Positions 15,970 through 37,138 of a stretch of 37,209 nucleotides of DNA are shown in pieces. Position 1 is the first letter of the stretch, and each line of letters begins with the position of its first letter. The DNA lies in the NCBI GenBank assembly GCA_013115125.1, contig JABANN010000344.1, positions 1 through 37,209 of the forward strand. The letters are read 5' to 3'. The notes below the pieces were generated by a model. The model did no database searches. It had not been told where the DNA came from and saw only the letters and a program-made list of their open reading frames with translations. The DNA comes from Perkinsus olseni. Its lineage: Eukaryota. Position numbers and translations under genes: made by a program.

Positions 15970-18347
15970 ATGCTTCGACGTAACGTACGGCTGAGGAAGG
16001 AGTATCTGTACAAGAAGGCTTTGGAAGAGAAAGAACGTGAGCCGCTCGGTTGGATCGACTGCCTTGGTTTCGGAAGTTGGTTGTTGTCAGGAACGACTCT
16101 CGAGAAGAAACGGAAGCTCAGGGATGCCTTGGAGCAGAACAAGTCTGTGCCAACTGAGCTCAGAGGAGATACTAAGCTGAGGACGACGCTTGACTTGGAG
16201 GATGATAGAACCAAGGTCATATCATTGGTGGTCTTTCTGTCGTAGGCCGTTGTAGTCCGCTTCGCTAAAGAAGTAGCGTCTCGGCCGCCTCCTGCCGTAC
16301 TGATCACGAGACTCCTGATGAGAATCCACTCATCTCTTTGATTGAAACAGTTTACAGCAAACGCAACCGGCGCGATTGCTTACTCAGCTCCGGTCTTGGG
16401 TGGCGATAGGCTCGAGTAACCATGCGCTATGGTGATAGGAAACTCATCATCGTACCGCCCCTGCACAGGCCGGTGCTTCGATCCGTCCAGGGCATTGATT
16501 CTAGGACGGCATCCTTGTACCCGCCTCGGTCTCATCAACGGTGAATGCATTATGTGTGCCTTCAACAGTGGGATGCTCGCGAACTTGTTCAGTCCGACAC
16601 ACGTCAATGTTATCCAGCATAACACTTGTCAACTCTATAACTATAGTTGGCCACTTTGTATATAGCAATACGTGTCAGGTTTCTGTATAATGATGCTTAC
16701 CAAATTTTTATGTATCGATACTCATTTATTTTGCTGTGAAGTACGACATCTGTTGGTTTTGTATGGTCCGACGCTTGCTGACTCAGTCAAGCAAAGTTCC
16801 TCTTTTCCTTGACCTCAGCGTTTTCGTCCGAACGTGTTGATGCGGTTTGACTGCCGGTTGTAGGTTCAAAGACTGGCCATCGATGACGAGTATCAATACC
16901 TCGGAGTTCGAGAGCCGAGGGTGCTAGTTACCACTAGTCGTAACCCGAGTTCGAGGTAGTAGGCCGAATGGCGGGTCTGTAGTAGCTGATGATGGTGGAT
17001 TAGGTTGGGGAAGTTTGTGAAGGAAGTGAGGCTGCTGATACCGAATAGTCAGCGTATTAACCGGGGCACCTACGTCATGAAGGATCTGGTCGACTTATGT
17101 AGGAAAAATGACATCACCGATATGGTAAGAAATCGCCGCTGTAACAGTTTGCGTTCACTTTCACCTGCAGGTTATCGTTCATGAGCACAGAGGCCAGCCA
17201 GATGGTCTTATCGTATCCCATTTGCCTTATGGGCCAACGGCTTACTTTGGCCTGTCGGACGTGGTAATAATACAGGCTTTCACTACATTCCAGGACGTCT
17301 CCTCATGCCACCTACATCACTATCACTAATTCTACTACCGTTCCGATGATATCTACTTCTGCTGCCACTATCGCTGCTGTTTCTGTGATATCTACTTCTG
17401 CTGTCACTATCGCGGCTGTTTCTGTGATATCTACTTNNNNNNNNNNNNNNNNNNNNNNNNNNNNNNNNNNNNNNNNNNNNNNNNNNNNNNNNNNNNNNNN
17501 NNNNNNNNNNNNNNNNNNNNNNNNNNNNNNNNNNTGCCACTATCGCTGCTGTTTCTGTGATATCTACTTCTGCTGTCACTATCGCGGCTGTTTCTGTGAT
17601 ATCTACTTCTGCTGTCACTATCGCGGCTGTTTCTGTGATATCTACTTCTGCTGCCACTATCGCTGCTGTTTCTATGATATCTACTGCTGCTACTATTGTT
17701 ACTGTCCGGATATCTGTTCTCTGCTCAGGTCCTGCGGCACGATCTTCCTGAGAAGCCACCGAATATGCCAGAGACGTACCCTCATTTGATCTTCCACAAT
17801 TTCGGTGGAAATATCGGTACTAGGTCTGAGGTCGTCAGGCTTGCTTGATCGCTCTCTGGTAAGGTACGCGTGTACAGACTATCCTTTCGGCACTGTTCCC
17901 ACCTTCAAAGCCTGACAGTAAGTTGTCCTACGGCGGGATGGAACCCTCGCGGACGAGTGGTATGTGGGTTTCTCGTAGGTACACGAGCAATCACTTTTGC
18001 CAATGATGGTGGTGACTGCATCGGCTTCCGTCACCACACCTTCGAGAAGCCCACGAAGGCTACTAAGAATCGAGCTGATGTGAATGCCGATGACGTGAAG
18101 CTGTACGAGCAGGTAATATATCCTACTCGTAAAGGCGGTCCACAGAGAACTGCATTCAGGGTCCACGGTTCAACATGCAGCTGTATCGCCTCGAGCTCGG
18201 CACGTTAGATATGCCTGATGTCAAGACTGAATGGGTGCTCAGGCCCCACTTCAATAAACAGCGATCGGTAGGCCTGCTGGGCCCGGTGGGAGACTAAGAA
18301 GTCTTTTTCCGTAGATACTTGCAGGGCAGGCTGTGGTGGAGGAGTGA
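15970..18347 (+). CDS. IMP4: U3 snoRNP protein IMP4 (Brix domain), multi-exon
   Basis: [81 protein letters not shown] and [19 protein letters not shown] all join through GT-AG introns. Confidence 0.95.
17347..17700. repeat. 39-bp tandem minisatellite inside an IMP4 intron (17264-17728), interrupted by an N gap (17437-17534)
   Basis: Unit tgatatctacttctgctgYcactatcgcKgctgtttctg is repeated on both sides of the gap. Confidence 0.95.
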
Positions 18348-18810: not shown

Positions 18811-19857
18811 ATGCCACCGGAAAGCCCACTCGATGTAGTATCTTGGGCGGACCTGTAGTATAATAATCTGGTCCGCTTCAGGGAGGGTACGAGCAGCTCC
18901 ATTTGGATCCGTTGTTCCCTGTCTTCCCATCGTCCATCCATACCGAAGAAATGCCGGTGATGGAGAGCCCCGTCCCGGTGCCGCTATTTCCGAACCCTGA
19001 GTTGATCCATGAAGCGGCCCGACTCTCTAACGAGGTGGATTTAATAGCGCTCACCACTGCCGGAAATGGCGGCTCCAGTAGCACCAGCCCGCGGTCTCGT
19101 GCTAGCTCAAGCAGTAAGGGCTCGTCTAAGACGAGGAGAGCGTCGAACAATAAGGGGAAGTGTGCTTACCCGCTCGGATGCAACAAGTACAGACAGAATG
19201 GTGAGTCCATACGGAGCAGTCACGCCTCGTTGTTAGGCATAATTCAATTCAGGGACACGGTTTTGCGTGAAGCACGGTGGGGTGCGGCGATGTGCGGTGC
19301 CAGGGTGTCCCAATGCTGCTAAGCGCGGTGACACTACTAAGGCTGTGTAAGCGCTCTGGCTAGACTGTAGCACTTCCCTCTTGTTGCCGGAGTACCCATT
19401 GTCTAGGTTCTGCATTCGTCACGGCGGCGGCAAGTCCTGTCGTGTGCCGGGTTGTGGAGTGTCCGCCAGAGGCTCCACGGGCTACTGCTACAAGCACCGG
19501 AAGCTGACTACTGCGAGGTCTCGAAAAGATTCGACAGCCTCGACCGCGTCGGGCTCTGGGTCTGAGGAATCTCTGGTTGATCAAGGCCTCCAGCTCTGTA
19601 CAATGAGCCCATCGGCGCCCTGTGATGCTTCTGGGGTGGATCTTCAAGTGCCCGGTTTGACGGCTTCCCATTTGGACTACCCCTATTGGGGCAGCTCATC
19701 AGCAGCTGGAGAGGGCGATCCAAATCTGGCATCTCTCAATTTCCTTGGCGTAAGCGACGAGAAGTGGACTTCCTTCGTGAAGCCTATGGAGCCGCTGCCG
19801 GAGCTGCTCACGAACCATATCGACCCAGATGCCCCTGGAAAGCTCAATCTTTTTTAA
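18811..19857 (+). CDS. WRKY19-like C-x4-C...C-x2-HGG zinc-finger repeat protein (paralog A), spliced
   Basis: KCAYPLGCNKYRQNG|TRFCVKHGGVRRCAVPGC...|FCIRHGGGKSCRVPGCGVSARGSTGYCYKH. The start is uncertain and may extend upstream into the Q-rich frame. Confidence 0.8.
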
Positions 19858-20498
19858 TCGTTCACTCTGCTGTCGTCCAGGTCTCGGATCAGGTCGACTG
19901 GAGAGGAGTAGTTTGTAGTTCCTCCTCACTGTTCTTTGTAATTCAACAAGTAGTTCTTCGAGTCCACCTCTAACGTATCGTGCTACCTTCTCTTGCGTCC
20001 TCACAAGACGTCTCTTGCTTTTCATCTTCAACGAGAAGTTCAAGTACAGGCGGCTCGTGTCACCGTCCAATCAGTCGTTATCAAGGGAGGGTGTCCAACT
20101 CAGTGTATTTCTCGAGCTATCGTGACGACCTCTGGAGCGGTCAGCGCCTGTCCATTGCGCATTTGTTTTGAGCGCAATAAAGTTGACTACAAGATTGGCT
20201 GATATACGCACGAGCGCCTCCCGGTACACTTATAGCCTCCCATCTCAATTCCTGATTTCAGTAATGCTTCACCCACTCTGTCCACGATACGCTTCCACTA
20301 CCACGACTACCACTATAACTGTCCTGTCGTTTCGGCCCTGTCGCTAATTCATTGGGCCATCCATAAGTAACGCTGTGTCTCGTTCTATCGGCTATGTTGC
20401 GTTGCGGAGTTGATAGCTCGGGAGCTCCGCACAAACTCCGCACAAACTCGTCTTTTTTTTCAGTTTCGTACGGCTATTGGTGGCCGTTTGTCGTGTTC

Positions 20499-21233
20499 AT
20501 GGCCTTTGAGGTGGTAGGCCCGGCGAAAAAAGGGGCAGAGAAACGATGGCGCTGTGCATTCTCTGGAGGGTGTCAAAAGTATCGCCAGAATGGTGAGTTC
20601 CGCTCTCGACCTTAATCAGTCTAATAGATCATCGCCCGCGGTGGCTTAGGCACTCGATTTTGCGTGCGACACGGCGGAGCGCGAGCCTGCGGATTTCCAG
20701 GATGCACGGCTACATCGAGGAAAGGAGGTGAGGGAAAGTAAGTCCACCCAGGGAGGCGCTTTAAGAGCGTTATAATGAAGCTCCGGTATAGGAGCGCGGA
20801 GCGGACGCTGATACATCGCCTCAGATATTGCATACGTCATGGTGGTGGGAGACGCTGTACCTATCCTGGCTGCCATACCGCGGCGAGAGGAAGAACTGGT
20901 TTCTGCTATAGACACAAGAAATGCAGCAAATCGTCAAATGGAATCGATAGCAGTGCCATAGCCAGTTCCGGCGGCGCGGATTCTCTGATTGCTCGTTTGC
21001 TCCGCGACATCGACCAGCCCACCTCGTACGAGCCTTCGGAGTCCTCCAGTGAGACCACCGATATCACCGTGGATTCACCCACTGCCAGGCAATCGAAACA
21101 ACAACTACAACAACAACCACAACAACAGCAGCAATCGCAACTCTTTTCCTCTGCCGTTGATTTGTACGACCAGTGTTGCTTCTCTAGCAGTTCTGCTAGG
21201 GCTTCGGCGGTTCCCATGGTCTATCATTTATAG
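20499..21233 (+). CDS. WRKY19-like zinc-finger repeat protein (paralog B), spliced
   Basis: RCAFSGGCQKYRQNG|TRFCVRHGGARACGFPGC...|YCIRHGGGRRCTYPGCHTAARGRTGFCYRH. Introns fall at positions equivalent to paralog A; poly-Q tail. Confidence 0.82.
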
Positions 21234-21535
21234 TCGCTCATCCGTTTCATTCGGGCTGTTCCGGACTGGCATTGCCAGTGGGGTGAAGCCTTCGACACGG
21301 TTCAAGGTCAGGTTTCGAAGTACAGTATTTGCGATGTAACGTCGCGCAATCTTTCCCCGACTAGCGTTTTCTCTCCGCTACCGTTCAATATCGTCCAAAG
21401 CTCAACCGTATTGGTTTTAGGATTTAGGCTTCAGTCTGATGTACCTCTCGAGAGTGTCGCGTTAGGAAAAACGTCAATTATTGACCCTGCTCCTTAGTGT
21501 ACCAGGGGAGACGGTAACGGTTACAGTGCGGATTA

Positions 21536-21594
21536 AGATTCCATGCAGCGGTTACCCCTGGTAACTTACCAGGGGTAACCGCTGCATGGAATCT
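21536..21594. repeat. Perfect palindrome, 29-bp arms, 1-nt centre
   Basis: agattccatgcagcggttacccctggtaa-c-ttaccaggggtaaccgctgcatggaatct. Confidence 0.97.
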
Positions 21595-21777
21595 AGTCTA
21601 TCCGCCATAGACGATTCACGAATATCTCAGAATTTTATATCTCCACACTGGAGGAGCTTTCGCGAGTCACGCTAGCTCACATTAGCAGCTGTATCCCAAA
21701 TTTAGTGCACTGCTACGGGTTCCATCATCTATTCTTGGCATGGTTATCACCTTGAGTGATAGTCAGCCTGGCTAAGT

Positions 21778-21824
21778 CAGGTGATACACCTATTCTTACT
21801 GAGTAAGAATAGGTGTATCACCTG
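21778..21824. repeat. Perfect palindrome, 23-bp arms, 1-nt centre
   Basis: caggtgatacacctattcttact-g-agtaagaataggtgtatcacctg. Confidence 0.97.
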
Positions 21825-22158
21825 TCTTCGACCGTTGGCCACCGTAGTGATACCGGAGATGGTTCGAGACTCGGATCCACTCGGATTCCGAGTGAGTCTC
21901 ACGCCGGCTGAGACGACGAATAGGCCGACTGAGTCCCTTTTTCGTCAGCGAGTCACTAGGCATTTGAGGCAACCTACTGTCGTCCGTCTGTTGCGACTCT
22001 CTGCCTGTGAGCAGCTTGTTGACTTTTCCGGTGTGCTATCTCTCAGCTAGAAACTAACAGCTACTCCAAGCCATACCAACAGTTAGCACTTTCTCACGAA
22101 ATCCAGCGGCAACGAACCGGTGAGTCTGAGCAGCGTAGTCATGTGGCCCTATGTTTCC

Positions 22159-24222
22159 CAGGAAATTTTCCTGCGGAAAACTATTCCTCTTATTTCATAG
22201 GAAGAAATTCTTCATAGGTTCGCATTCAATGCGATCCAAGTCACTGACCTCTAAACTGACTTGAAGCCAGCTCAGCAAGGTCGAGGACACTGCACCGAAG
22301 ACATTCAATGAGGAAACAACCGAACTCCTCATCAACGTGGTAGTGGGCCGTTCAGGCCCTGAACTTCAGGGCCATGGTTGCCAGGCTGAGCAGTTCCTGG
22401 CGGCAACTCCCATGAGCTCCTGCCACTCTCCCCGGCGGAGAAGGTGAGACTCCGAACTCTACTATATCACCTCACTTCCAGTGACAAACCAGAATACGTT
22501 ATACCCTCGCGTCGCCGAATCACTCGGTCAGACACATGCACCCAACCGAGTTGGGCTGTCAGTCGCAGCCGCTCTGTACTCGATAATCAGACGATGACTA
22601 CTCAGAGGTTCTGCTGCTCCAAATATATCTCAAGTCTCGAGAATCTCAAGAGTTGAGATTCAAGAGTATGACGTCAACAGTAGTTGACTCCGAAGGTCGT
22701 AGCCGCGTCAAAATCATTCCTGCGCTGATCCACGATGGCACCGTCAGTGTTGGCGCCAACTTGGCGCCTATGCCATGCGCGCTAAATCTATGGTATTACG
22801 GATCGATGAAGCGGTCGAATTACTCTGCTTTAAATATGCGAAAGCCGATACAGGCTTTTCATTGAAAAATTTAAAAGTTGGCCAAGCTCACGGGCAACGC
22901 TTGGGAAATTAATCCGACTGATACGTTCAACCGACCCGCACATGCGATTGGACAGGTTGGGCTTCGGCGTCAATATAGCTCCCAGTGTCCTTAGAAGGAT
23001 CATAACGCATATTCTTCGGAGGGCTCCGAGATGAGAAACATATCCGACCAATCGACGAAGTAGAGCTGGAAGCCGCATTAAGAGGCTCAGGGTGGCAAAT
23101 TTAGGGAAACATTGGGCGAAGCTTCCTTCTTTCCGAAATTCCATGGAAAATTCAAGCTAATCAAACGCCGCCGTGAGTTCGAGTTCCTCAAGCTCATGAA
23201 GCGACATTGTCGCTGCGACATAGCGAGCTGAGTCCCTCAAGTGCATCTCCGTCATCTTGATCTAACTAATCTTGTTACCCAGCTTGCTAGTAGCAAGTTG
23301 CTACGGTAGCCCAGTTATCAGCGGCTCGCTGCATTGAAGTAGCACACCGGTCCTGGATCAGCTGTCAGGATCGGCTAAGCCGATTCGGCTTCCGTATCCA
23401 CGGTTGTCAGGCTAAGCAGTTCCTGGCGGCAACTCCCATGAGCTCCTCATACCGAATCCCGCTCCCAGGGAGCGTTTAACGGTCGTTATTCGAAACCAAA
23501 CTCAATGCGAAAGCAAACTATGTCAGTCACGTCGACGACGTGTGAATCGGCTGCTGACAGCTACTTGGCGTGGAATCTACAGCGTGGATGTATCAAACGA
23601 GAGCTGAACTTTGTCAGCCAAGGTACGTAACACTCGTGCAGAAAGCAATAGCAGAAGCCGGCGTTTCCACTCGGGCAACCGACCTCGCAGGCTGCACGGA
23701 AATGCTGCAATTTACGAACATCCAGAAAAGGCTCACTGAGTCAGGGTTGAGCGAATAATTCCCGAGTTCAACTCGGCAGCTCGGCGAGCTGCCAGAGGGA
23801 AGAGCCCGTCGGGTGGCTGGTGAGAGTTGCAGTATGACAATGACAATTTGAGCGGAAAACGAGATGAATGTTGCAAATTGCATCCCGCAACGCGGACGCG
23901 TAACCGAGCAACCGAGCCTCGTTCGACTTCACCCGAGGTCGAAGCTGAAGTCGAAGCAGTTTTCGACTACTTATGACATGACTTCGCGTAGATGCGGTGT
24001 CCCCTGACTCAACTTGGATTGAGTCTCGTGAACATGCCGTGGTGAATGTCATTCAGTGAATGGCTAGTACTCCACTTTGAATAATAGTAGAGACCATTGC
24101 TAGACGCCGCTGTGCGCGGCGGTCACAGCGGCGCTAGGCACATGCATCGCACACGATGCATCGGTCCGATGCCATCGGAGCTAACAGGTCTTAGTAACTT
24201 AGACTAAGTTAGACCGTCTAAC
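22159..24222. mobile_element. Cluster 1 of putative hAT-type excision footprints (T1-7 + rc(T) + T2-8)
   Basis: Perfect at 22350-22371, 23283-23304, 23370-23391 and 24158-24179. One mismatch at 22159-22180 and 23200-23221. Compound at 23762-23791, nested at 24187-24222. The sequence pattern is clear; the transposon origin is inferred. Confidence 0.8.
22372..23447 (+). repeat. 50-bp direct repeat (22372-22421 and 23398-23447), 3 mismatches
   Basis: ccaYggttgYcaggctRagcagttcctggcggcaactcccatgagctcct occurs twice, 1026 bp apart. Confidence 0.9.
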
Positions 24223-24429
24223 TGATACAACAAAGATTTCGCTCATCAAATGGAGGTCGATTTCTCACTGCTAGCCCCTAGTATACACGCTGTAGACGCA
24301 TATCTCAGTCAAGAGCTCCCTATCACTACCAGGATTGACTTAAGAGACTTCAGAGCGCGACAAAGGCGTTTAGATAGAGGAAAGACAGTAACGTTTGGTG
24401 AACTCCGAGGAGATTATCTACCAGTGAAC

Positions 24430-26678
24430 TCAGGATAAATCCATGGCAGCGGGGGCAGTGAACTGCCTGAGTGACGGGAACGGGTCATTCGAGGCACCTG
24501 TGAAGTTGATAATCTCTAATACTTCATGTAAAGCAACGGTACCTCCAGCTGGAGGCAATCCGGCAAGCATCTTCCCAGTGCGCGTATCTTCAGCAGCGCT
24601 CAGCTCCCGTCGAATTTCAATCGTGATCTGCAAAATGAAGTCAGCAACAGACCGGCTCGGTGTCCACGGTCAACCTGTGATACGTGCCGATATATCCATA
24701 ATTACCTCTTTATGAGGATGAGCCTTCATGACCGCCTTCAACGTTTGGATCTCCGATTGCGACAGCTCGTGTTTGTACCTGATACTTCCCAAATGGCAAG
24801 AGAGCGCTCGAGCGTAATGAGCGCACCTCTGCACGAATGCGAGGAGGGACTGATGCCACAGGACTGGCATCTCCCTCTCGTCCGGTATGAACCCCTTGTA
24901 ATGATCAACAACAGCAGTGACAGCTCTCTTAGGCAAAGAGTACCTCAGGAGAAGAGCGATGGCCATAGGAACAGCCCTATGGGCCTACTTCTTGTTGATG
25001 ATGGTCCTGATAGCGATGCTAGCGGTTGGACCGGGCCAGGAATAGCCAGAGAGCTGGCAAAGTCTGACTAGGGCAGCCGCAGAATGAAGCACCGGGAGGG
25101 AACACTTAGACAGCACCTGCAGATACTCGAACTCAGGAACACGAAAGCCGTTCAGATTGTTCACATAAAACAAGCGCCCCACAACCAATTTCACTCAGGG
25201 CACACGATTTACTCGCAGGCCATCACAAGTGCGGGAAGGACGCTGTTCAATCGGAAAGACAAGACCGGAACGTTGGTGGCAGTGCTCCCCAACCCGCATC
25301 CCATACTACACTGCAAACGATGACTGCCTCCCTGATGGTACAAGTAGGGCAGATAATCAACGGCAAGAAGATACCCTTGAACCACGCTGCTGGCTTGAAA
25401 GTAGCGGCCTAGGTTGAGCGGGAAAAATCGAACAGTTGAGAGGAGGCAGTTTACTTTGAGAGCCTCATAGTAGTGGAAATTGAGTCGTTTATTCACAGCA
25501 ATGTCCTCTCGAACAGCGGGAAGGAGCACCTGGAAAGACACTAATGAGAGCCAGCCTGATCCAAACGAGCAACAACGTACCAAGTTGAGGTATCTTTGCG
25601 CTTGCTTAGGGCTGAGGTTGGAAACGAAGATCTTCGTAGCTTCACGAGTAGCGGCAGGAGTCCATTCCACAGGATTAGTGATGAATAAAACCTGACCTCG
25701 GGACCACATGCCTTCTCCTGAGCAAGATCATCGCGATTACTTCTTCCCAGTTGATCAGACTCGGGATGATCTTGAACGCCTTAGGTATCTTACCGGACTT
25801 GTACGTACTCAACCACTTACCAATGTCAGAGTATCTACGAAAACACAGTCCCTTTAGCAGAGCGACTGCTGTAATTTTCCCTACACTCTCACAACCTGAG
25901 GGTTGATAGCCTCGCTAGCATCCTCAGCCGACTGAACCTTGGATCCTCCACCACTCGACCCAGCTTCTCGCTCACGAAGCTGAGCAAATTTCCTTCGTCT
26001 CTTGATCGTACATCGCGTAGTACCTTCTGTTCAATGATATCTGCGAGTGTCAATCTTTTGGGCTCCTCTTCGTTCGATCTGAACTGCGCCTGCGCGGCCT
26101 CGTCTGCCTCCGTGACCTCGGCTCCAATCCGGACCTAATTCCAATCAATGTTGACCGAGGCGAGGCGGCTATCAGCAACCCAAGAGCAACTCTTACACGG
26201 CCTTCTTCGTCCACTTCTACTTCGCCAGCTTCGACCTCGGGAGTCTGAGAACTCGCGAAGTGCCGTATGTACGGAGACATTCGCGTTACTTTAGCATCTC
26301 CATCTTCAGCTTCTTCCAACTGCTGCTGTTGTGCAGCTTTAAGAATACGTTCAGTAATCTTCGAAGGGACAGACTCCATGCCCTGACTTTAACCCGCTAC
26401 TCACTCTCCATTACAGAGTGTATGCTTCCTCACCTCGTCCGGCCCACCAGTCCCTCTATGGCGGCCCTTCTTCTCACGAGGCACTTTCGAAATCCCTGCC
26501 TCAGCATCAGCCTGATTAAAAGCATAATTATTAGAACGTTTTGTAAGATCCACGGGTAGGCGAATAGCCGTCCCTTTGTTCTGGCTAACCCCCCCGGTAG
26601 TACCTTCAAATCCTCGAGGAGAGGACCGCTGCGGAGCTTCTTAGTGTCCGTGGCCGAAGATCGAGGGGCGCGTGGCAT
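24430..26678 (-). CDS. BYSL: Bystin / Enp1 (40S ribosome biogenesis factor), multi-exon
   Basis: [93 protein letters not shown] and ITIEIRREL. Confidence 0.95.
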
Positions 26679-26923
26679 CAAATGTATAACTAAGCGACCT
26701 CAGGATACAGTAACGACTTCAATGCGGGTCGCCCGTGAGCGGGGTAAGAAGCATAAAAAATTGCAAGTCGTGAGGGTCGAACCTGGGACTTTCCGATAGC
26801 CACGGCACCTTATCGCGCGACTTGCTCTCTGGTATTTTCTCAACTTTCACGAACAAGACTGGACGGCAGGCACGCCTGGTATTATTCCAGTCTCAGTCAG
26901 TTTCTCCCTCTCCGTATTGAAAT

Positions 26924-28120
26924 ATGTGGAGGGCTGGTGTCCTCATAGTGAATCTATTAGTCATACACGTAAAGCTGAGTAACTTCTGCGAAGGAGCAAC
27001 TGGTACTGCCCGCCCCTACAAGAACGCCCTGGTTAAGATGCCTATCGAGGATGGGCATGTTACTGTGAATATTAACGGGCAGGATCAACACCTTCGTCTC
27101 GATACCGGCTCTTCTCAGCTGCGTGTCGTGGATGGTGACTGGTATGAGAGCCGATACGGTGAAGATGCCTGTTTGACGCCTAATAAAGGGTGTTTCTACT
27201 GCCCCAAGGAAGCGCTCTGTGACTTTGACAAGGATCCAACTCTCACGACATCGCACTCTGCTGACGGATCTATCATCAAGAGTCTGTCCCGCCATGGCTC
27301 CTTGACACTGGGTAGCTGCCGGATCGACAACTTTCCTTTCAGAGTGTCAAGAGAATTCTCGCCGAAACTCAAGCCACCACCGAGAGGCTACTTCGGCATC
27401 GCTGCTCCCCCGCAAAGTTTGCAGGGTTATCCTGACGGCTCGAGCTTCCTTGAATCTCTCTCTCGCTCCGGGACCATCACCAAGCAGGTTTACTTTGTTC
27501 GAGCACTCCCAACAAACTACTCAAAATACATCACTGGCGAACTGACGCTCGGTTACGGGATAGACAAATCCATGGCGGGGAGGAAAATCGGCTCCTTTCG
27601 CTTTTTTCATGGCCCATTGAGTCATCAGGGGTTCCCAACTGTGCGAATTGTCTTTGTGGGATTGTCGAACACAGGTGAGAGCCCCTCAGGTGGAGAAATG
27701 TATGCACACCGATATCGGAAAGTATTCCCGTCCGTCCTTGACACCGGGTCCACGGCGTTGTTCCTGCCACTACCGACCTTACTCGAAGACATAGTGATGG
27801 AGCTGAGAAGGAATCTTAGGGCTAAAGGGTACGAGGAGCGTGTGATCGCGAGCAAGTATCTTCTCAAAGACGGTAAGCTGGCGGTGTACAAAAACGTTGT
27901 GGACGCTCTACCAGTTCTCAACATACGTATAAGTGATCAAGGAATGAGCGTCCTTGTACAGCTGCATCCGAGGCACTACTGCCAGGATGCAAGGGTGCCA
28001 AATTCTTGTCAAGCTGCTGTAAGTTCTAGTAGTATCTCTAGCTTGGGAACTCCCTTCTTCTTGGCCTATAGTATGCAAGTCGACCACACGAATCATGAGA
28101 TATCTTTATTCGAGAATTGA
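26924..28120 (+). CDS. Secreted pepsin-like (A1) aspartyl protease, intronless
   Basis: Hydrophobic signal-like N-terminus, two catalytic motifs LDTGSS and VLDTGST, C-terminal LGTPFFLAYSMQVD. Confidence 0.9.
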   Translation: MWRAGVLIVNLLVIHVKLSNFCEGATGTARPYKNALVKMPIEDGHVTVNINGQDQHLRLDTGSSQLRVVDGDWYESRYGEDACLTPNKGCFYCPKEALCDFDKDPTLTTSHSADGSIIKSLSRHGSLTLGSCRIDNFPFRVSREFSPKLKPPPRGYFGIAAPPQSLQGYPDGSSFLESLSRSGTITKQVYFVRALPTNYSKYITGELTLGYGIDKSMAGRKIGSFRFFHGPLSHQGFPTVRIVFVGLSNTGESPSGGEMYAHRYRKVFPSVLDTGSTALFLPLPTLLEDIVMELRRNLRAKGYEERVIASKYLLKDGKLAVYKNVVDALPVLNIRISDQGMSVLVQLHPRHYCQDARVPNSCQAAVSSSSISSLGTPFFLAYSMQVDHTNHEISLFEN

Positions 28121-29221
28121 CAGTGCGAGAAACATGCTGCGAGAAGTTATGATCATGTTGCTGTTGTGATGTTGTTCTGAACCGACATCTGTGAGTGATG
28201 TGTCGGAGTACTCAGTGTTCTGAGTGTCAGTACCACCCAGCGAATACCCGCAGAGGAGCGCTGCCGGTAAGAGGACCCTTTGGATCTCCTTGAGGCCAGC
28301 GGACGATCTGCCGATGTGACTCAGGTTGCTCAGACTCTGAGTACTTAGTCGCTGGGCTGTACTCTGAGTATCTGAGTAGTTAGTTGCATTACCGTAGTAA
28401 CCTACTTTGAACCGCTGAACCTTGCCCAAAGGGAAAGCTTATCGGCTTCGAAGTGCCTTGACGTCAAAGGATAACCACCGAAGTGCCTGCGCGTTTATAC
28501 CACGATATCGCTCCCTAGTAGACACCCTCTCTGTGAGGAACTCGCCCCTCATTACGCAAGTGCGATACTGCCACAGTATGCCATCTCAGCTGAGTTTCAT
28601 CTTGATATAATAATCATCAAACCCGAGTATCTTCGGGTCCTGGAGCTGGTGGACCAGCCAGCCGATGCCTTGCTACAAAACCCTTGTGAGGTTCTATCTG
28701 TCGCGAAGGTTCAGCCACCCGGGCTCGAGCGGTTAGCGACTGTTACACATGCAGAAAGGCTCAGCGGCGGCGCCGAGCGAACGCGCTCTTATTACCTGCC
28801 GAGTCGGCAGGTAATAGTCGGCAGTGCCGACTATGTGAGTCGGCTATGTATGCCGCAGCTATGTGAGTCGGCAGTGCCGACTCACTAACACAACTACCTT
28901 GCAAGTCGCAGGTATTACTTAGCGACAAGTAGAGATGAGATGAGAGAGATCGAAGAGCGAAGAGATACTTATCGAAAGGGATTTGTTTTAGCACCGTGAA
29001 ACTTCCACTAGAGACTTTGCCCCAGTCGAAGTTCACCAGCTGAACTACCTATGCTTATTATACCTGTTACAGATGACGTATATAGCACTCCGGTAGAATG
29101 TATCGAACAATGAGCTTTCTGCCCTCGCAGGTTGCAGGAGCCTTCACTTGAGTAGCGAGCAGTGGGCACTATGTGAAGAGCACACAGGGTACATGACCTT
29201 CTGAATCGTATCACAGACTCT

Positions 29222-29633
29222 TCAGCAGTTCCCATTCTTCAGGACGTACACTTCGCAGTCACCTCGAGGTTCGAGGATTATGACATCAGGCCCAGGGAAG
29301 TAAGCCACACGCTGCCAAAACTGGGGATATAAGGAATACGCTTTGGCAAAGTTTGTGAACTGCTCGGACGACACATCGACCTCGATACGATGGTCTGCGA
29401 AGCCTAGGATGGGAATGCCGTCGGCACGGACCTGTGTGTCACCCGTCAAAGTGAGAATAGTCATGGTGCCTTCCGACTCGGAAGGCACCTCTCGGAAGTT
29501 CCGAGAAACCGAGCGCCCAATCGTACCCGCGCGCCTCTCTACACGGAGTACAGTAGTGCTCACTGCGAGGAGTGAAGGCCTCGGTGCTCCTAACTGCGAG
29601 GGCCACCAGGCAGAAGATAGCGGTGCTTATCAT
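29222..29633 (-). CDS. Small, probably secreted hypothetical protein (signal-peptide exon plus second exon)
   Basis: Signal-like MISTAIFCLVALAVRSTEA, a GTGAG donor-like site, then another open frame ...GTMTILTLTGDTQVRADG...DVIILEPRGDCEVYVLKNGNC*. Splice junction not fixed. Confidence 0.55.
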
Positions 29634-31126
29634 AGATCTTTCGGTAACTCTGACAAAAGCCTAACAAGGTAGCGTGTCTTGAGGCATTGAAACTGGCCCT
29701 CACTAAAGTTGAGGATTCGCTCCAAATCAAACTAAGCGCGAAAGTGAGGAGCGTTGACGGGCAGGTCACAGCGGTGCAGCTTACAGGGTTCTAGGCACGG
29801 AATAGCTCAATGGATTGCTGTAGGGCACAACTTGTGCCGCACAAGCTGCGCCCATCTGACGGGAACGGGCAACCAGGGATTGGGGCCTCTGCACACTGTT
29901 TGACTTTTACGGCGAGGCCTCTCAGCGGTGATAGCCCCCCAACTTGGCTGTCTCGGGAATCCCGAGTCGGGATCCCCTCTCTTCAGCGAACTACTGCTGA
30001 TAACGCTGGTCCTTTTTGCCTTTACGTCTGTTGAAGGAGACACATTATGGCGATCAAGGCTTGAGCGTAGCTCATATGTGCATGCGTCGAAAGCTCTGCG
30101 GGCGTGTCTTAGCTGCAGGTCGAGTCTTCCCAGTGCCAACTCGAGGGCGTCATTGACTGCAAAGTTACTAGAAAATTAGAGAGATACTAAGTATGATTAG
30201 GATATCATCAGGCAAGTCATACTCATAGTTTCATGTTTCGGGAGTAATCCGCAGCTGCAGTACGTGATGCGTACTACGCATATCCATAGCTCAGTCCGCT
30301 ATGTCCCTGCCTGCAGCGGAGCGGTCGTCAGCATATTCATGAAAAGTAGGCTTCAATTAGGAGCCCTTCTTAAAGAGTGCTGTGCGCAGCACCAACCTTA
30401 GGGGACAGACTTTTTGTGTTATTTGGGGAGAGGAGCCTTTTTAGGCGCAGTTTCAGCCTCGAAATATGCCAAAACCCCAGAATCTGGAGCCCATATTCTA
30501 GAGTCCACAAGATCCTCGACAAGCTACCTTCGGAACATCGTTGTCCGGACTAACGCCGACATCGTCGGGCGCAGCCCAACATTTAGGAAACGGAAGTGAC
30601 TCAATCTCGGCTCAGCCGGCAGTGTACTTACGTGACGTAAGTATATGTAAGCACGTAAGTATAGATAACTTACCTAAGGTAAGTTACGTACCTCACGGGG
30701 TAGTCATTGCATGCGGTCGCATTGGTGCCGAGTCGGCACTGCCGACTATCCCACTCGCCGAGTGGCACCAAGCGTATTTCACGCTAGCATTGTCACCCCG
30801 CATTCGGGAGTACCGCAGCGGGGCATGAAGTGTAGAGATTGTCCCTATATTGCACAGTGATTGTCTCATATTATAAGTTTTTGCTGCGTGACACAGCCTG
30901 TGTCGTTCATACCGTGACGCTAGAGCGCATTACTCAGATGCTATTGTTATTTTAGCTCGTGCAAAACCCGCGACCTTTGCTCATACGGAGTGCTTTGGGT
31001 TCGCGTGGGGTTTAACTTACTACGAAGTGCGGAGACAATTCCGGAAAAGTTGTTTCGGCATCTCTGGTATACCGCCAAGTCCGTCGCGGTAAACCGGCGG
31101 GCATTCCGGAGATTATGTATCACACG

Positions 31127-32338
31127 GTGACAAACTCAACATTCTGGAGATGATTGGTTCATCAGCTTTAAAAGCTGTGCTACAACTCCCTCTTAAATCC
31201 AGAATCTGAATAGCATCTTCCTCATACGTAAGAGGCGAAATAATGGGTCGGGGAGATATGCTGACTCTAAAAACTGTGGAACGCTCCCGTGTCCTTCATG
31301 AACAGTTCAAGAGACATCTCGAGCGGCCTCCCGGATTGAGTAGGGAGAACCAGAGGCTCTGGTCCAGAGCTGCTGTCGTTGTCTGTAATCTCGGCTTCGA
31401 AGCCCTGAAGAGAGGATAATACCACTCTCGAAGAATCAATCCACGGAACGCGTCTGTGTACTTCTGATACTCTAGGGGGGACTAGAGTTGAGTCTGTCGG
31501 ACTGCGTACGACCACGTCGGGACTGGTTGGACGGGGAGTGGGTGGTGATGTAGACCTCAAACACGTCCACGGCCACGAGAACGAGGATCTTCTTTTAACC
31601 TGCTCGTAATCCCGTGACACCCGTTCTAAGCCGAACATGTGAAGAAAGGATCTTATTCCTGCTCACTGTCCGGTTATGTAGAGACTGGACGGCCAGAGCA
31701 CTCATATGCTCTCTTCTCATGTTCTGCAAGGATTTCCTCCTGTCATTCCATTCCCTGTTGTCGCACCACAGCTGACGAATTGTTTGTAAATTCTCGTCGT
31801 AGAGCTTCTGACGATGCTGACAATAGAGAGCTCGATATTCAGTTGAAGGAGTAGATAATGGCAGTGACAACAATCACAACGGGAAGCTGCGCCCGCATGA
31901 ACGAGGAAATCTGTACGGACGTTTGGGTCCTCACCTTAATTTCTCTGGAATGCATTCTCTCAAGTCTTTCTTGCTCCTCAGCGCACTTCCGCAGCTTCTG
32001 TTCCAGCAGTCTCGCGTATTCTTTGAGACCTTCGTAGTCTTCACGCGGCACAGTCATGTTAAGCTGTAAAAATCTGCGGAATATGGGTCTTCCCTACTAT
32101 TGTTATGACTCAACACCCAATGAGTTGCTGAATATTCGTGGTATGCAGCATATAGACTCAATTAAGCTGAGACGCCATTCAAGGCAGCACCGGGAGTGAT
32201 GCTGCCTTCAGGGCCACTTTACACTCTCGAGGCCTCTTACTACGTCTATCATCAGAGAGGCTCTGGTAGAGGATTTCGTGATAGCTGAACAGAACGAGGC
32301 CCGACTTCGTGACCTGCAGAGGGCTCCTGAGTCGTTTC
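31127..32338 (+). repeat. 1.2-kb segmental duplication, copy 1
   Basis: Colinear with 35942-37138. The offset is 4815 at the left end and 4800 at the right, explained by indels of 14, 3, 1 and 1 nt. Confidence 0.97.
31267..32057 (-). CDS. Hypothetical spliced coiled-coil protein, copy 1
   Basis: MTVPREDYEGLKEYARLLEQKLRKCAEEQERLERMHSREIK|HRQKLYDENL... with GTGAG donors. The phase of the 3' exons is uncertain; may be a pseudogene. Confidence 0.55.
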
Positions 32339-34103
32339 TGAGTGTCATTGACGGTGAAACGTTGATGGAGATCATTGCTGTTACCTGTGCTTCCGGGCGA
32401 CTCTTGCACCATCTGTTTCAAAGACTATCCGCCCTTCGGGCCCCACGGCTACTTCTGAGAAGTGACATCTCGTGATGAGAATCTCATCCTCGTTACACGC
32501 TGTCACGTTCAACACCGTATGGTCTATTCACGCCGGCAGTTGTACAGAATTGATCTCCGGGACTGTTATCCAATCATTGTCAGCATGTTAGTACAATAGC
32601 GACTTCATCAATCCATAATTCTCCTGAGATTATCTTCGGTCACATTGCGATAATCGCCGATATCTGCATAACCGTGGTTGCTGAGCAGTTATGGGCAAAA
32701 TTCGAAGTTCGAGGGGTGTGACCCCAATTAGCACTGCTAATTTAGCAGCCTTGAAGGTTGCTTGTTGAACCTTCATGTTGTCAATGAGAGCTTATCATAG
32801 TTTGAGCTTCTCCAAACGCAAAGCTCCTATACCCCAATAGTTTTCCCAGCCGACTGCGAGAGGAACGCTCCGTGAGCGGCTCACGGTGAGCCTCAAGTCG
32901 TGACACCTGCGTTTGAAAGCAAAACTTGTGACACGTAGTACGGGAGCATATTGAAGATGCCCCCTTCTATATCCTCAACCATTATATTAACAACACCACT
33001 ATCAAGAGCTTTCGAAATTCCTCATAACGTTTCATGCCGGCCACAACCATCGACTGAAGATGCTCCAAAATCCCGTACTGTTGTCTCGGGCTCTCCTCTT
33101 GTACCTATATCTTCAACGTACAAGATTCAGAATTGTAGGGGTCTGAATGTGTTGTTAGCGGTATGTTACCGCCGGTAACCAAGGGTTAACGGTGAGAACG
33201 GACGCATCCAAGACTTGGTTTCCAAGTATGTCGAGTGAATTAAACTTAAATGCGACGTGTGAATTTCGCACGCTTGGTGGTGAGAATCATGAGAGTGAGA
33301 CGGGTCTCGGGGCCCTCGTCTGAGGAGCACGGGTCCGACTCGGACCCTGAGTAGACTCAAAGGTTGCCCCAAAGGGTCATTAGGGTTACAAGCAATTACA
33401 AATCGCGAGCTTGCCATTACGATAATATCTTCGCTCGACTCGCATTCGCAATCGTGCCCTCAATCGTATTCCGGGCCGGAATATGCACGCAGTAATAAAA
33501 TTCGGGTTTGGCATACTTAGGATTTCAGCAAGGATTTCTCACTGGTAATTCAGAATAGGCTACAATCGCACTCTCGGGTCAAGACTCTTGACTCAAGAGT
33601 CTCGCCGCCACCTTCGTCAAGCTTGCACGAGAGGAGGTGTAACCGTTACACTGCGATGAGTAAAACACTGTGAAACTGTCAGAAATGTTGGAAAATTTTC
33701 TGTCAATTCTTGTAACAAAACTATGGACGTTCGAACATTCCACCCTCTGACTTCTTGAGCTTCCTCGTCAATTCATCAATTTCGGTTTTTGCCCTGGCCA
33801 GCTCGAGTGCCTGAGAAGGCCCAAGAGTCCATCGCGTGGAGACTTTCACGATCGAAAAGTGACTTTTCAAAAGTCGCTCAGTGCAAGGGCGGCCCTTGAA
33901 GGGTCCCTTGCCAAGGGGTAAAGATTAGCGACTACTTGTGCGGCACAAGTTGTGCCGAGTAGCGGTTCCGGAGTGTACTATACTGCTTCTCGAGCGCTTG
34001 CGCATCACTGGTCCATAATCCACCACCAACCTGCAATGGGGCAAGATTCTGCACAAGACCTACCGGACTCATGAATTATGATGATTGTCCAACCCTAACT
34101 GTG

Positions 34104-34310
34104 TCACACACAAACCATGAGTGGCACCTTAGCTACCCATGGAATTTCGGACGCGACTTCAACTGCCATCTCAGACGCCTTCCGGGCTGTCATCTCGAGC
34201 GCCATCTCAGTCGTCATCTCAGTCGCCATCTCAGTCGCTATTTTATTCATAAGTCTGTCGCGGGCTTGCTCGACTTCCCGCCTCCGCACCATCTCTTTTG
34301 CCATGAGCAA
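34104..34310 (-). pseudogene. Gene remnant with 12-bp repeats (ATEM/TTEM/ALEM)
   Basis: Plus strand shows gtcgccatctca-type 12-mers repeated about 34165-34218. The minus-strand frame is helical-looking but has no clear start. Confidence 0.35.
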
Positions 34311-35544
34311 ACGGAGCTGTCTCTCTGTAGCAGATGTCTGGTCGGCGCCCTACCCAGGACGCACCGACTCATGATGTACGACAAAAAGTTGCCGGCAATC
34401 CATCTAGCATAAACTTTGCTGATGGTCCTACTGTAGGACCATCAGCAAAGTTCCTACATCCGGTCTTGATTTGAGCAGGCCACACAGGCGATAGGTTCTC
34501 GAACGCCCCTGAAGCGAGAAAAGATTAACTCGCAGCTGGTACGCCTTCGTGATAGTGATCTCTGGCCCACCGAAAATTCCGGTGCGCCTAGTTATTCCCG
34601 GCTGCAAAACGTTCCTGGTTGATGCTCATCGTTTGGAGCAGGCAACAATGGGAAAGTGAGAGAAGAGGAATATCCCTTCAGCTTACCTCCGATGACGTCG
34701 CGGCATGATGGTATCTTTGTAGGTCCATTTGAAACCCGAATGAGTCTTTAGTCAAGGCCAAAGACTTGATCACCCGACAAGAGTGGCCCCACCAATTCTG
34801 ACTGTGGGGTCGAGCTGTTGGCTAGTGACAAACTCAACGTGGTCCTAAGCACTAGCCGGGTTGGTTTAACCCAAAAATTCCGGGCCGAAATACTTCGCTA
34901 CACGAAGTAACCCCTCACAGCTGAGCACACCGACATCCACTTATGAAAGATAACGTTTCGACGCTGCAACATAGCGTCCCTGACCACCATTTCAGCTCCG
35001 GTACCCTGACGAGAGAATACTGCGACACTCGGGGAGTCCGAAAGTGAGTTTCTCCATCTCTGGTGAGCTCGGTGGGTTTAGAGTTCAGTGAGAAGAACTG
35101 AGCCCGAGCACATCAGAGCTGGTTGGACGGGATTCTGGTCCACGGGAATATCGGAAACACCAGCTATCCCCCGCTAATAGTGCTCAATTAATGACGCAAT
35201 TCCCCATGAGTTGCTGACTATTGTTCTGTCATTGCTCACAACACGATCATCAGTATGTAGGACCGGAGCCGCCGGAGTCCGGCGGAACGTAACTACTGAC
35301 AACAATAGACCGAGCATGACTGAGATTTATCTAGAGGAGCCTTGGTCAGATGAGTCCGCTAGCCTCTAACGCACAGCATCCCTTCGGCTAAGGATAGGCC
35401 CCCGAAAAGAGCAAGACTTCCGTGGTCTCCCGACAATTAACGCACGACGCGGAAGCGGTTTGAATCTAAGGGCTGCTCTAAGAACGAGACACCGGTTCCA
35501 CGATTAATCGAAGATTTTTTGGACTTCGGATTTCGAAAATGCGT

Positions 35545-35730
35545 TCAGCGGCTCACCTGCTTCACCCTGAACAGCTCAGGCAACCCAGCCTTGAAATTTT
35601 TCAGGTCAATCTCAACACCGTTGATCCCAAACAGGACACGATCGCAAAGCTTCGTCATGAACTTCGTGACACGAAGTCGATCCCCCCAAGAAAACCAGGA
35701 ATCGGCAGGTAGCAATCGGTACTGTAGCAA
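35545..35730 (-). pseudogene. Isolated exon-like segment of an unknown gene
   Basis: CAG|YRLLPADSWFSWGDRLRV...ELFRVKQ|GTGAG, bounded by canonical splice sites. Confidence 0.35.
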
Positions 35731-35847
35731 TCGGTGAAGTGTACATATCTTTGTGGATTCCTCTACCTATGCTCATGTTGTCCTCCTCCTGGTGCGTTGT
35801 CGCGCAGCACGACTCAGGCTCATCAGCCTTGGGTTAGGAGACTAAAA

Positions 35848-35928
35848 TCTAGCCGCTAAAGTGTGTAATAATTACTAATTAATAATTAGCTAGCCCCTAG
35901 ATGATTATTACACACCTTAGCGGCTAGA
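35848..35928. repeat. Inverted repeat, 25-bp arms (1 mismatch), 31-bp AT-rich spacer
   Basis: tctagccgctaaagtgtgtaataat ... attattacacaccttagcggctaga; the spacer contains ctaatta-a-taattag. Confidence 0.92.
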
Positions 35929-35941
35929 GCTATGTTACCTC

Positions 35942-37138
35942 GTGACAAACTCAACATTCTGGAGATGATTGGCTCATCAGCTTTAAAAGCTGTGCTACAG
36001 CTCCCTCTTAAATCCAGAATCTGAATGACATCTTCCTCATACGTAAGAGGCGAAATAATGGGTCGGGGAGATATGCTAACTCTAAAAACTGTGGAACGCT
36101 CCCGAGTCCTTCATGGACAGCTCAGGAGACATCTCGAGCGGCCTCCGGGATTGAGTAGGACGAACCAGAGCTGCTGTCGTTGTCCGTAATCTCGGCTTCG
36201 AAGCCCTGAAGAGAGGATAATACCACTCTCGAAGAATCAATCCTCGGAACGCGTCTGTGTACTTCTGATACTCTAGGGGGGACTAGAGTTGAGTCGGTCG
36301 GACTGCGTACGACCACATCGGGACTGGTTGGACCGGAAGTTGGTGACGTAGACCTCAAACACGTCCACAGCCACGAGAACGAGGATTTTCTTTTAACCTG
36401 ATCAGTGATCCCGTGACACCCGTTCTAACCCGAACGTATGAAGAAAAGGATCTTATTCCTGCTCACCGTTCTGGTATTCTGAATTGAGGCGATTAGCCCC
36501 CGCCATTGCTGTCTGAGGCGTAGCCAAGAACTGTTCAACTTCTCTTCCCGCTGACTCTCATCGTACAAGAGTCGACGAAGCTTTTTTAAGTCCTCGTCGT
36601 ACAGCTTCTGACGATGCTGACAATAGAGAGCTCGGTATTCAGTTAAAGGAGTAGATAATGGCAGTGACAACAATCACAACGGGACGCTGCGCCGGCATGA
36701 ACGAGGAAATCTGTACGGAGGTTTGGGTCCTCACCCTCATTTCTCTGGAATGCATTCTCTCAAGTCTTTCTTGCTCCTCAGCGCACTTCCGCAGCTTCTG
36801 TTCCAGCAGTCTCGCGTATTCTTTGAGACCTTCGTAGTCTTCACGCGGCACAGTCATGTTAAGCTGTAAAAATCTGCGGAATATGGGTCTTCCCTACTAT
36901 TGTTATGACTCAACACCCAATGAGTTGCTGAATATTCGTGGTATGCAGCATATAGACTCAATTAAGCTGAGACGCCATTCAAGGCAGCACCGGGAGTGAT
37001 GCTGCCTTCAGGGCCACTTTACACTCTCGAGGCCTCTTACTACGTCTATCATCAGAGAGGCTCTGGTAGAGGATTTCGTGATAGCTGAACAGAACGAGGC
37101 CCGACTTCGTGACCTGCAGAGGGCTCCTGAGTCGTTTC
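35942..37138 (+). repeat. 1.2-kb segmental duplication, copy 2
   Basis: Matches 31127-32338; both copies begin gtgacaaactcaacattctgg and end gggctcctgagtcgtttc. Confidence 0.97.
36082..36857 (-). CDS. Hypothetical spliced coiled-coil protein, copy 2
   Basis: Near-identical exon 1 (MTVPREDY...) and a strongly diverged exon 2. The stop is at 36082 or 36122 depending on splice phase. Confidence 0.55.

Follow-up and report, generated by a model that had tools for sequence, protein, structure and literature searches.

The excision footprints of Ac/Ds are the closest described counterparts of the structures considered here. Excerpts of PMC5873905 describe them as palindromic insertions whose centre is complementary to whichever base adjoins the element, in yeast with arms of up to 20 nt and with microhomology in 88-89%; together with excerpts of PMC1978519 they depict a heterogeneous class, with 28 types among 128 Candida revertants. 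Hermes, hobo and Ac make 8-bp duplications with the target preference nTnnnnAn (PMC10368747, in part). These elements imply a hairpin on the flanking DNA, offset by one base. Zhou et al. 2004 are said to have described such an offset flank hairpin for hAT elements. Off-centre opening of hairpins also produces palindromic additions in the case of Transib and, through RAG, as the P nucleotides of V(D)J coding joints. The cuts that RAG and Transib make lie exactly at the border, so that their palindromes are even-centred, and Transib makes 5-bp duplications. The MULE Muta1 likewise forms flank hairpins, with duplications of 8-9 bp, and its excision in yeast is mostly precise, footprints being rare (PMC5499845, in part).

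We analyzed a 37,209-nt stretch of Perkinsus olseni DNA (contig JABANN010000344.1), hereafter the window, that carries a dense field of related structures. Off-tip hairpin opening, joining by microhomology and an 8-bp duplication are features that these would share with Ac/Ds footprints in yeast, Arabidopsis and Candida (PMC5873905 and PMC1978519, in part), and the one-base offset with Hermes, hobo and Ac. The differences are also clear. In excerpts of the same two papers Ac/Ds footprints are short and heterogeneous, with arms mostly of a few bases, whereas in Perkinsus one full-8-nt product dominates (32 of ~56 palindromic events). Ac/Ds footprints come from reporter assays, but the Perkinsus scars are a standing, polymorphic genomic population; Hermes, hobo and Ac have known elements, whereas the Perkinsus scars are known from footprints alone. 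Unlike the products of RAG and Transib, they are odd-centred with a duplication of 8 bp, and unlike those of Muta1 they are not rare.

We define "scars" as copies of the 22-mer T[1-7]+rc(T)+T[2-8], in which T is a deduced 8-bp target. The window was scanned for the general pattern T[1..k-1]+rc(T)+T[2..k] with k = 3-13. Thirteen perfect scars lie in its non-coding DNA, at 22350-22371, 23283-23304, 23370-23391, 24158-24179, 29824-29845, 29952-29973, 30725-30746, 31349-31370, 32727-32748, 32871-32892, 33578-33599, 33854-33875 and 33935-33956 (neither these nor the features below are assigned to a strand). They are the 13 copies of the initial annotation, each found where it had been placed and with the three-part structure described there. 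The peak at k = 8 that it anticipated is sharp: perfect matches in the whole window number 13 at k = 8, one at k = 5, one at k = 6, and none at k = 7 or k = 9-13, with 0 in the shuffled controls, which were run for perfect matches at k = 8 only. Allowing at most one mismatch gave 25 matches at k = 8 (0 in shuffles), one at k = 7 (0.2), nine at k = 6 (2.0) and none at k = 9 and k = 10. Segments with 0, 1, 2, 3 and 4 mismatches at k = 8 number 13, 12, 10, 25 and 76, against means of 0, 0.03, 0.33, 3.5 and 33 in 30 block shuffles. When the two loops between three 6-nt arms were varied over 25 combinations of 0-4 nt each, only (1,1) was populated, with 16 cases compared to 0.0 in shuffles. All bases in the scars derive from T, and no foreign sequence is common to them.

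Once overlapping registers are removed, the window contains 33 distinct scars with two mismatches or fewer, 32 of which lie within 21551-35889 and the remaining one at 9851. The 19 imperfect copies in the field (~0.4 expected by chance) include the five previously reported, at 22159-22180, 23200-23221, 30883-30904 and 33884-33905 with one mismatch and at 30260-30281 with two, by majority rule; those five are genuine, and the earlier tally was an undercount. Single mismatches are also carried by the scars at 21551, 21760-21781, 30662, 33158-33179, 33206-33227, 35655-35676 and 35868-35889, and two mismatches by those at 24042-24063, 30475-30496 and 34870-34891. Nested, overlapping scars begin at 24189 (one mismatch) and 24201 (two) within 24189-24222, and a pair with two mismatches each begins at 32450 and 32467 (32450-32488). 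Scars 29824 and 33935 have the same 8-mer in opposite orientation and unrelated flanks. The field, originally delimited at 21536-34458, has wider limits, approximately 21265-35992, and it also holds many two-armed odd palindromes.

The scars and ~24 other odd-centred palindromes, with arms of 7-29 nt, occupy two non-coding stretches at 21.2-24.3 and 28.8-36.0 kb (first field, 21265-24300; second field, 28790-35992). Almost no odd-centred palindromes were found in the genic part of the window, 62 of 63 falling inside 21265-35992. Perfect palindromes with 1-nt centres number 37, 14, 3 and 3 for arms of 7, 8, 9 and 10 nt, and one each for arms of 11, 12, 13, 20, 23 and 29 nt; 1.45 are expected by chance for arms of 7 nt and 0.3 for arms of 8. 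Palindromes centred on 0 or 2 nt occur at chance level only, so the enrichment is confined to the one-base-offset centres of a hAT footprint. The longest is a perfect 59-nt palindrome (arms 29 nt) at 21536-21594, which encloses a fourth arm as well as the scar at 21551, and where X8 contigs skip 51-53 nt. Others span 47 nt at 21778-21824 (arms 23 nt) and 41 nt (arms 20 nt) at 34412-34458, the latter running directly into the final 6 bases of its deduced 8-mer. A cluster at 30625-30690 combines a palindrome at 30625 (arms 9 nt) with the scar at 30662, which has an extra arm. Two-armed palindromes start at 21265, 21878, 22220, 22752, 23460, 23528, 23762 and 23775 in the first field (15-19 nt), and at 30751, 31163, 33331, 33467, 33637, 35269 and 35978 in the second, 31163 and 35978 being paralogous. 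Most of the 24 lone palindromes are without remnant of a second T copy, and the distribution is near that of the control; the exceptions are one 6-nt and three 3-nt matches to T. This counts against the excision reading given below.

Contigs of two strains, X7 and X8, that are ~2-5% diverged from the window were used to compare alleles. Both strains are shorter by exactly 14 nt at 29953, 30483, 30726 and 31350, positions that belong to the scars 29952-29973, 30475-30496, 30725-30746 and 31349-31370. Among the 12 indels listed of 92, all six of at least 14 nt are accounted for: these four absences, a 28-nt absence at 29471, and a private 14-nt insertion behind 29674, where the window has an empty site (29672-29679) and X7 and X8 have scar geometry with at most one mismatch. 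X7 record 11 (30323-31125) includes just 28 gap letters, and therefore the remaining scars of that interval are present in X7 too. Opposite the scar 31349-31370, a paralogue at 35942-36833 keeps a single 8-mer intact (36164-36171). The single intact 8-mers in the paralogue and the two strains indicate that the scars are +14 insertions, that they are polymorphic, and that they are not assembly artefacts. The 8-bp duplication of a hAT footprint is seen both in these empty alleles with one 8-mer and in the restriction of the pattern to k = 8. In four X7 contig pieces (3.6 kb), 145 gap letters were counted versus 92 substitutions.

Two sites preserve more than the three arms. At 29465-29506 a left palindrome (arms 12 nt) abuts a right one (arms 8 nt), and X7 and X8 lack the 28 nt at 29471, retaining a single 8-mer. 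At 28790-28885 the left palindrome has arms of 13 nt and the right of 11 nt, with templated, partly inverted filler between them, and both strains skip 78 nt (28796 to 28875). One ancestral 8-mer, flanked by both full palindromes, is found at each site, and the palindromes at 31349, 29465 and 28790 are centred on bases complementary to those that end and begin the ancestral 8-mer. These two-palindrome sites look as two unannealed hairpin ends would, and their +28 and +78 forms stand beside the +14 product.

The deduced targets (n = 35) follow nTnnnnAn. The second base is T in 16 of 35 and the seventh is A in 19 of 35; pooled, the two positions agree in 35 of 70 cases compared to an expected 25% (binomial p = 1e-5). 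Hermes has this preference together with 8-bp duplications (PMC10368747, in part), while the Buster-type preference nnnTAnnn (PMC3499496) was not seen among the deduced targets. The preference is thus that of Hermes/Ac-type hAT elements.

We consider it probable, at roughly 0.78, that the 22-mers are donor-site scars of a hAT-type cut-and-paste transposon that duplicates 8 bp. The reading of the field as hairpin-mediated hAT-type excision goes back to the initial annotation and was supported by every test run. From the footprints we infer the element, its transposase, the site of hairpin opening and an annealing-driven, microhomology-type repair. By hAT chemistry, a nick one base into the flank would lead to each flank being sealed as a DNA hairpin on excision. 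The left hairpin would join T[1-7] to the bottom strand with the complement of t8 at its tip, and the right, its mirror image, would have the complement of t1. Opening on the far strand, at least 8 nt beyond the tip, would leave 3' tails ending in rc(T) and T, which could anneal over exactly 8 bp; once two 7-nt gaps were filled and the strands ligated, the product would be T[1-7]+rc(T)+T[2-8], with 14 nt gained. The annealing geometry proposed earlier was derived again strand by strand, and tails from such an opening do pair over 8 bp and yield the 22-mer. Joining without annealing would keep both full palindromes (+28, +78), and alternative processing would produce single palindromes. The +14 outcome, which had been called fixed, is dominant and not fixed, since ~24 other palindromic products accompany the 32 scars.

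Published hAT footprints, in the excerpts available, are short and heterogeneous, and a near-uniform +14 outcome needs an unusual repair regime. The +14 product was not found described in the portions searched of the Ac/Ds footprint literature, a search outside which Yu 2004 (PMC321453) and Lazarow 2012 fall. The initial annotation knew of no description of such scars as a genome-scale signature in this lineage, and no description of them was found in the literature searched here.

The search for the element was negative, and this result and that for occupied alleles bear only on these 37 kb. Neither a transposase nor any other transposon domain turned up among 116 stop-to-stop ORFs of at least 60 aa at 20.7-37.2 kb or among 18 larger ORFs elsewhere in the window. 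Identical 8-mer pairs 40-8000 bp apart flanking inverted ends gave 0 candidates in the window, where no hAT transposase or TIR elements with 8-bp duplications of the kind suggested earlier were found. The larger indels at 22401-22682, 34786-34973 and 35404-35600 are without terminal inverted repeats or duplications. As to the allelic states that had been proposed, empty and scarred alleles were found; the 8-base overlap of an occupied/empty pair occurs in 0 of the 15 strain joints listed of 26. In the literature searched we found no hAT element of Perkinsus, the DNA transposons reported there being Dada, Merlin relics and Tc1-like elements only. A conservative element would leave one scar per hop, so a few locally hopping elements could have written a dense field from which they are absent today.

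The same hairpin-and-anneal process might have been run by another superfamily with 8-bp duplications, Mutator-like (MULE), Merlin or other, although we regard this as unlikely. Flank-DNA hairpins and duplications of 8-10 bp are known from MULEs (8 or 9 in Muta1) and are compatible with the window, but the scar duplications are all exactly 8 bp, with none of 9 or 10, and excision of Muta1 in yeast is >90% precise (PMC5499845, in part). Merlin relics with 8-9 bp duplications have been reported in Perkinsus marinus, but the copies there are without recognisable ends and duplications, according to excerpts of PMC8101967. No long inverted ends were found in the window, and nTnnnnAn is the Hermes-type hAT preference. 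WRKY-type zinc fingers are linked to MULE transposases, and two ORFs adjoining the field contain one, at the Pfam threshold in one case and just under it in the other; no DDE domain was found near either.

Templated insertion during break repair or replication, in which a polymerase switches template or snaps back and no transposon takes part, is more improbable still. Such repair typically yields inverted copies of the flanks, and the filler at 28790-28885 fits this description. However, snap-back priming depends on microhomology that is already there and on a loop several bases long, and results in variable lengths, whereas >50 events have exactly 7-nt arms and 1-nt centres; only one of 25 loop combinations and one of 11 k values are above chance. 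Three T copies from one duplex would seem impossible without a prior 8-bp duplication, and template switching leaves the nTnnnnAn preference unexplained.

That the 22-mers are sequencing or assembly artefacts is scarcely credible, even though the window has an assembly gap at 17437-17534: X2 contigs, which may come from the window's own source sample and hence not be independent, match 21098-35900 with 0 differences at an ordinary depth of ~83-100, some of the scars recur in two diverged strains, where others are missing as absences of exactly 14 nt and one further scar is private, the scars are limited to non-coding stretches, and a paralogue in the same assembly shows the empty state.

Two further footprint types were rejected. 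A Transib/RAG-type origin would have called for k = 5, where there is just one match, and for 0-nt-centred palindromes, which are at chance. A P element leaves traces of its inverted ends behind at the donor site, next to an 8-bp duplication; the scars consist of T-derived bases and share no foreign sequence.

Returning to excision by a hAT-type transposon, we advance a wider picture tentatively, as a conjecture that is more likely wrong than right. One or a few hAT-type elements of great mobility, or else a small element moved by a hAT transposase that the host has tamed, would hop locally through the non-coding DNA of Perkinsus, adding about as many scar bases between strains as there are substitutions. 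This alveolate would open hairpins at a distance of ~8 nt or more from their tips and seal breaks by annealing instead of classical Ku/ligase IV joining, and the 22-mers would form a genome-wide, datable log of transposition.

Excision footprints are usually studied at one reporter locus, and Perkinsus holds dozens per 10 kb. Each 22-mer spells its target three times, so that target preference and repair outcome are readable from the sequence, and mismatches between the arms make scar age readable as well. In an alveolate parasite that is not a model organism, one could thereby measure how often transposition occurs, how locally elements hop and how double-strand breaks are repaired, with no need for genetics. 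Strains differ in approximately half of the scars, which makes these high-information markers for isolate typing, of use in an economically important mollusc pathogen; if a locally hopping hAT element is indeed responsible, the 22-mers are a ready set of strain markers. The scars would also speak for a DNA transposon active in the Perkinsus lineage, and would provide a natural record, in a parasite of molluscs, of transposon traffic and of the mending of DNA breaks.

Scars, defined here as 22-mers of the form T[1-7]+rc(T)+T[2-8] in which T is an 8-mer target, form a real pattern in the window that is highly specific and far above chance. All 13 perfect copies claimed by the initial annotation were recovered in place and in form, and its five imperfect copies each carry one or two mismatches. 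The same annotation had suggested looking for a peak at a target length (k) of 8. A scan of the window over k = 3-13 contains that peak: 13 perfect matches were found at k = 8, with 0 at k = 7 and 0 at k = 9-13, and when up to one mismatch was allowed there were 25 matches at k = 8 (0 in shuffles), one at k = 7 and none at k = 9 and k = 10. The k = 8 windows with 0, 1 and 2 mismatches number 13, 12 and 10, compared to 0, 0.03 and 0.33 in 30 shuffles. Removal of overlapping registers leaves 33 separate scars with up to two mismatches, 32 of them between 21551 and 35889 and one at 9851. When three 6-nt arms were combined with 25 loop-length combinations, only the combination (1,1) was populated, with 16 matches. 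Subterminal repeats of one element were ruled out, the scar sequences being unrelated, and tandem or dispersed repeat families were rejected, as was an RNA structure family (the Rfam scan was empty). Rfam and tRNA scans detected no RNA genes.

Strong enrichment is also seen for perfect palindromes centred on one base. Those with arms of 7, 8, 9 and 10 nt number 37, 14, 3 and 3, against expected counts of 1.45 (arms of 7) and 0.3 (arms of 8), and there is one each with arms of 11, 12, 13, 20, 23 and 29 nt; palindromes whose centre is 0 or 2 bases long occur at chance level. Of these 63 odd-centred palindromes with arms of at least 7 nt, 62 lie within 21265-35992 and 24 stand outside three-armed scars. 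With complex sites counted once, about 53 events are spread over two stretches, 2.9 and 7.2 kb long (4.6-6.8 per kb), and almost no scars or palindromes are present in the 21 kb of upstream genes or in the genic region at 24.3-28.8 kb. The 8-mer deduced for a 41-nt palindrome at 34412 reappears, in its last six bases, directly after the palindrome. Second-copy remnants of T were mostly not found beside lone palindromes, where their distribution was near that of the control; lone 15-mers may stem from the annealed-tail intermediate described below, with the third arm missing (+7). Overlapping scars, or scars with a fourth arm, occur at 21551-21579, 24189-24222 and 30662-30690; they suggest re-insertion into an existing scar, in which the preferred target is present three times.

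Comparison of paralogues and strains revealed the sequence that preceded the scars. A direct repeat of about 900 bp (31127-32033 and 35942-36833, 4.8 kb apart, 89-96% identical) slips by 14 nt in alignment precisely where the first copy bears the scar at 31349; at that place the second copy has a single intact 8-mer (36164-36171). The two copies have a palindrome in common (31163 and 35978), and one scar is found only in the first copy. Neither a longer homologue nor any other protein homologue was found for the repeat's 131-aa ORF (31270-31662). Contigs from four public sequencing runs, coded X2, X7, X8 and X9, were compared over 21000-35900. X2 showed 0 differences from the window at ordinary depth and may be its source sample, and X9, with no cover over 27-36 kb, was left out of the evidence. 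X7 and X8, from the same coded organism, differ from the window by about 2-5% substitutions; they are without exactly 14 nt at 29953, 30483, 30726 and 31350 and without 28 nt at 29471, and they carry a private 14-nt insertion behind 29674 that has scar geometry with at most one mismatch. Among the 12 indels listed of 92 for X7 and X8, six are at least 14 nt long, and all six are these scar-type differences. One X7 alignment (record 11, 30323-31125) contains only 28 gap letters, and the other scars in that interval are therefore shared with X7. From the strain and paralogue comparisons it follows that scars arose by insertion at intact 8-mers. Some of these events are old and common to both lineages, and others happened recently in one lineage or the other. 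Of the three allelic states that the initial annotation had proposed to seek among strains, empty and scarred alleles were found; the occupied state (T-element-T) was not seen among the joints listed for X7 and X8.

Two sites preserve longer products. At 29465-29506, where the other strains have a single 8-mer, two palindromes with arms of 12 and 8 nt lie end to end (+28); at 28790-28885 two palindromes, their arms 13 and 11 nt long, stand on either side of templated filler (+78 relative to X7 and X8). At both sites the palindromes are centred on the complements of the ancestral 8-mer's last and first base. These products match the expectation for two opened hairpins joined without annealing, and they reveal the 8-bp duplication without recourse to the 22-mer. 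The +14 outcome, previously described as fixed, is dominant, and is accompanied by the +28 and +78 forms and by the palindromes outside three-armed scars.

The best reading of these data is hAT-type excision by way of flank hairpins, in which we infer the element, the transposase, the opening distance and an annealing type of repair. The nick made by Hermes is reportedly offset by one base, a finding said to be that of Zhou in 2004. The left hairpin would consist of T[1-7], the complement of t8 and the remainder of rc(T), and the right hairpin, on the bottom strand, of rc(T)[1-7], t1 and T[2-8]. If each were opened at least 8 nt past its tip, 3' tails ending in rc(T) and T would result, and their pairing over 8 bp, with two 7-nt fill-ins, would yield the 22-mer. 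Since an element that moves conservatively leaves a single scar with each hop, a few locally hopping copies could have written the dense field and now be elsewhere. In Ac/Ds footprints the inserted bases form palindromes whose centre is the complement of the element-adjacent base; arms measure up to 20 nt in yeast, and most joints show microhomology (PMC5873905; PMC1978519).

The deduced targets also resemble those of a hAT element. Of the 35 8-mers deduced, 16 have T at position 2 and 19 have A at position 7; together the two positions fit in 35 of 70 cases (25% expected, p = 1e-5). The preferred target of Hermes is nTnnnnAn, with 8-bp duplications (PMC10368747). The Buster-type preference, nnnTAnnn (PMC3499496), was not seen in the 35 targets. 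One 8-mer was used twice, in opposite orientation and between unrelated flanks (29824-29845 and 33935-33956), the sites at 28790-28885 and 30725-30746 share a 7-nt core, and several targets contain TCGG/CCGA; these recurrences may reflect a target preference beyond nTnnnnAn. The hairpin-excision reading of the initial annotation is thus supported by the restriction to k = 8, the odd centres, the empty alleles, the unannealed products and the nTnnnnAn preference. That the same process was driven by a different element, a MULE or a member of another 8-bp superfamily, is unlikely. Transposon-free template switching is more improbable still, since the fixed geometry of the scars speaks against it. 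A sequencing or assembly artefact is excluded for practical purposes by the polymorphism between strains.

The hAT transposase and the element with terminal inverted repeats and 8-bp duplications that had been anticipated were not found within the 37-kb window. Pfam detected no transposon or transposase domains in the 116 ORFs scanned from 20.7-37.2 kb or in 18 ORFs elsewhere in the window; the domains seen were Bystin, aspartyl protease, WRKY-type finger, Aa_trans, F-box, RNA methyltransferase and peptidase C54. A window scan for inverted ends with 8-bp duplications returned 0 elements. Differences from X7 and X8 of 282, 188, 197, 162, 80 and 43 nt were rejected as elements, being without inverted ends or duplications; the first three are segments of the window (22401-22682, 34786-34973 and 35404-35600) that the X7 and X8 contigs skip. 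A multi-copy repeat of about 240 bp at 30107-30350, where X2 contig depth reaches about 1655 over a baseline of about 83, is bordered on each side by many loose contig ends (X2, X7 and X8) and was likewise rejected for want of clean inverted ends or a duplication.

Several neighbouring features deserve mention. A 50-nt repeat has two copies in the window, 94% identical: 22372-22421 follows the perfect scar at 22350-22371 directly (0 nt), and 23398-23447 lies 6 nt downstream of an unrelated perfect scar at 23370-23391. Strain contigs have joints at both copies (22400 to 22683, and 23450 back to 22444). The arrangement may be coincidental, or the repeat could be captured filler or a preferred landing structure; with two copies and an unremarkable fold (z = -2.2), it was rejected as a special structure or family. 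An X9 contig (coded organism B) matches 24997-26132 in five exact pieces, 24997-25114, 25308-25407, 25579-25689, 25739-25834 and 26024-26132; they look spliced, cover the Bystin-like gene and suggest RNA-derived sequence and at least four short introns. The aspartyl-protease ORF is 95-100% identical to Perkinsus olseni proteins. Two amino-acid transporter genes (Aa_trans) lie in tandem at 235-3239 on the minus strand, and a 39-bp tandem repeat (region 17347-17691) flanks both sides of a 98-N assembly gap at 17437-17534. Directly upstream of the scar field, at 19381-21230, are two adjacent ORFs with WRKY19-type zinc fingers, one at the Pfam threshold and the other just below it.

The accessible Perkinsus literature on transposons records Dada (PMC3706591), Merlin relics (PMC8101967) and a Tc1-like element. 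No description of such scars was found in the accessible text of that literature (transposons, hAT, palindromes, genome assembly, end joining), and its repair-pathway papers offered nothing informative in the passages covered, a CRISPR paper mentioning end joining in general only. The +14 product was not found in the main-text passages covered by a search of the general footprint literature. The kind of footprint is itself known, and the Perkinsus scars extend it; what is new is the occurrence of hAT-type footprints as a dense, stereotyped and polymorphic genomic population in Perkinsozoa.
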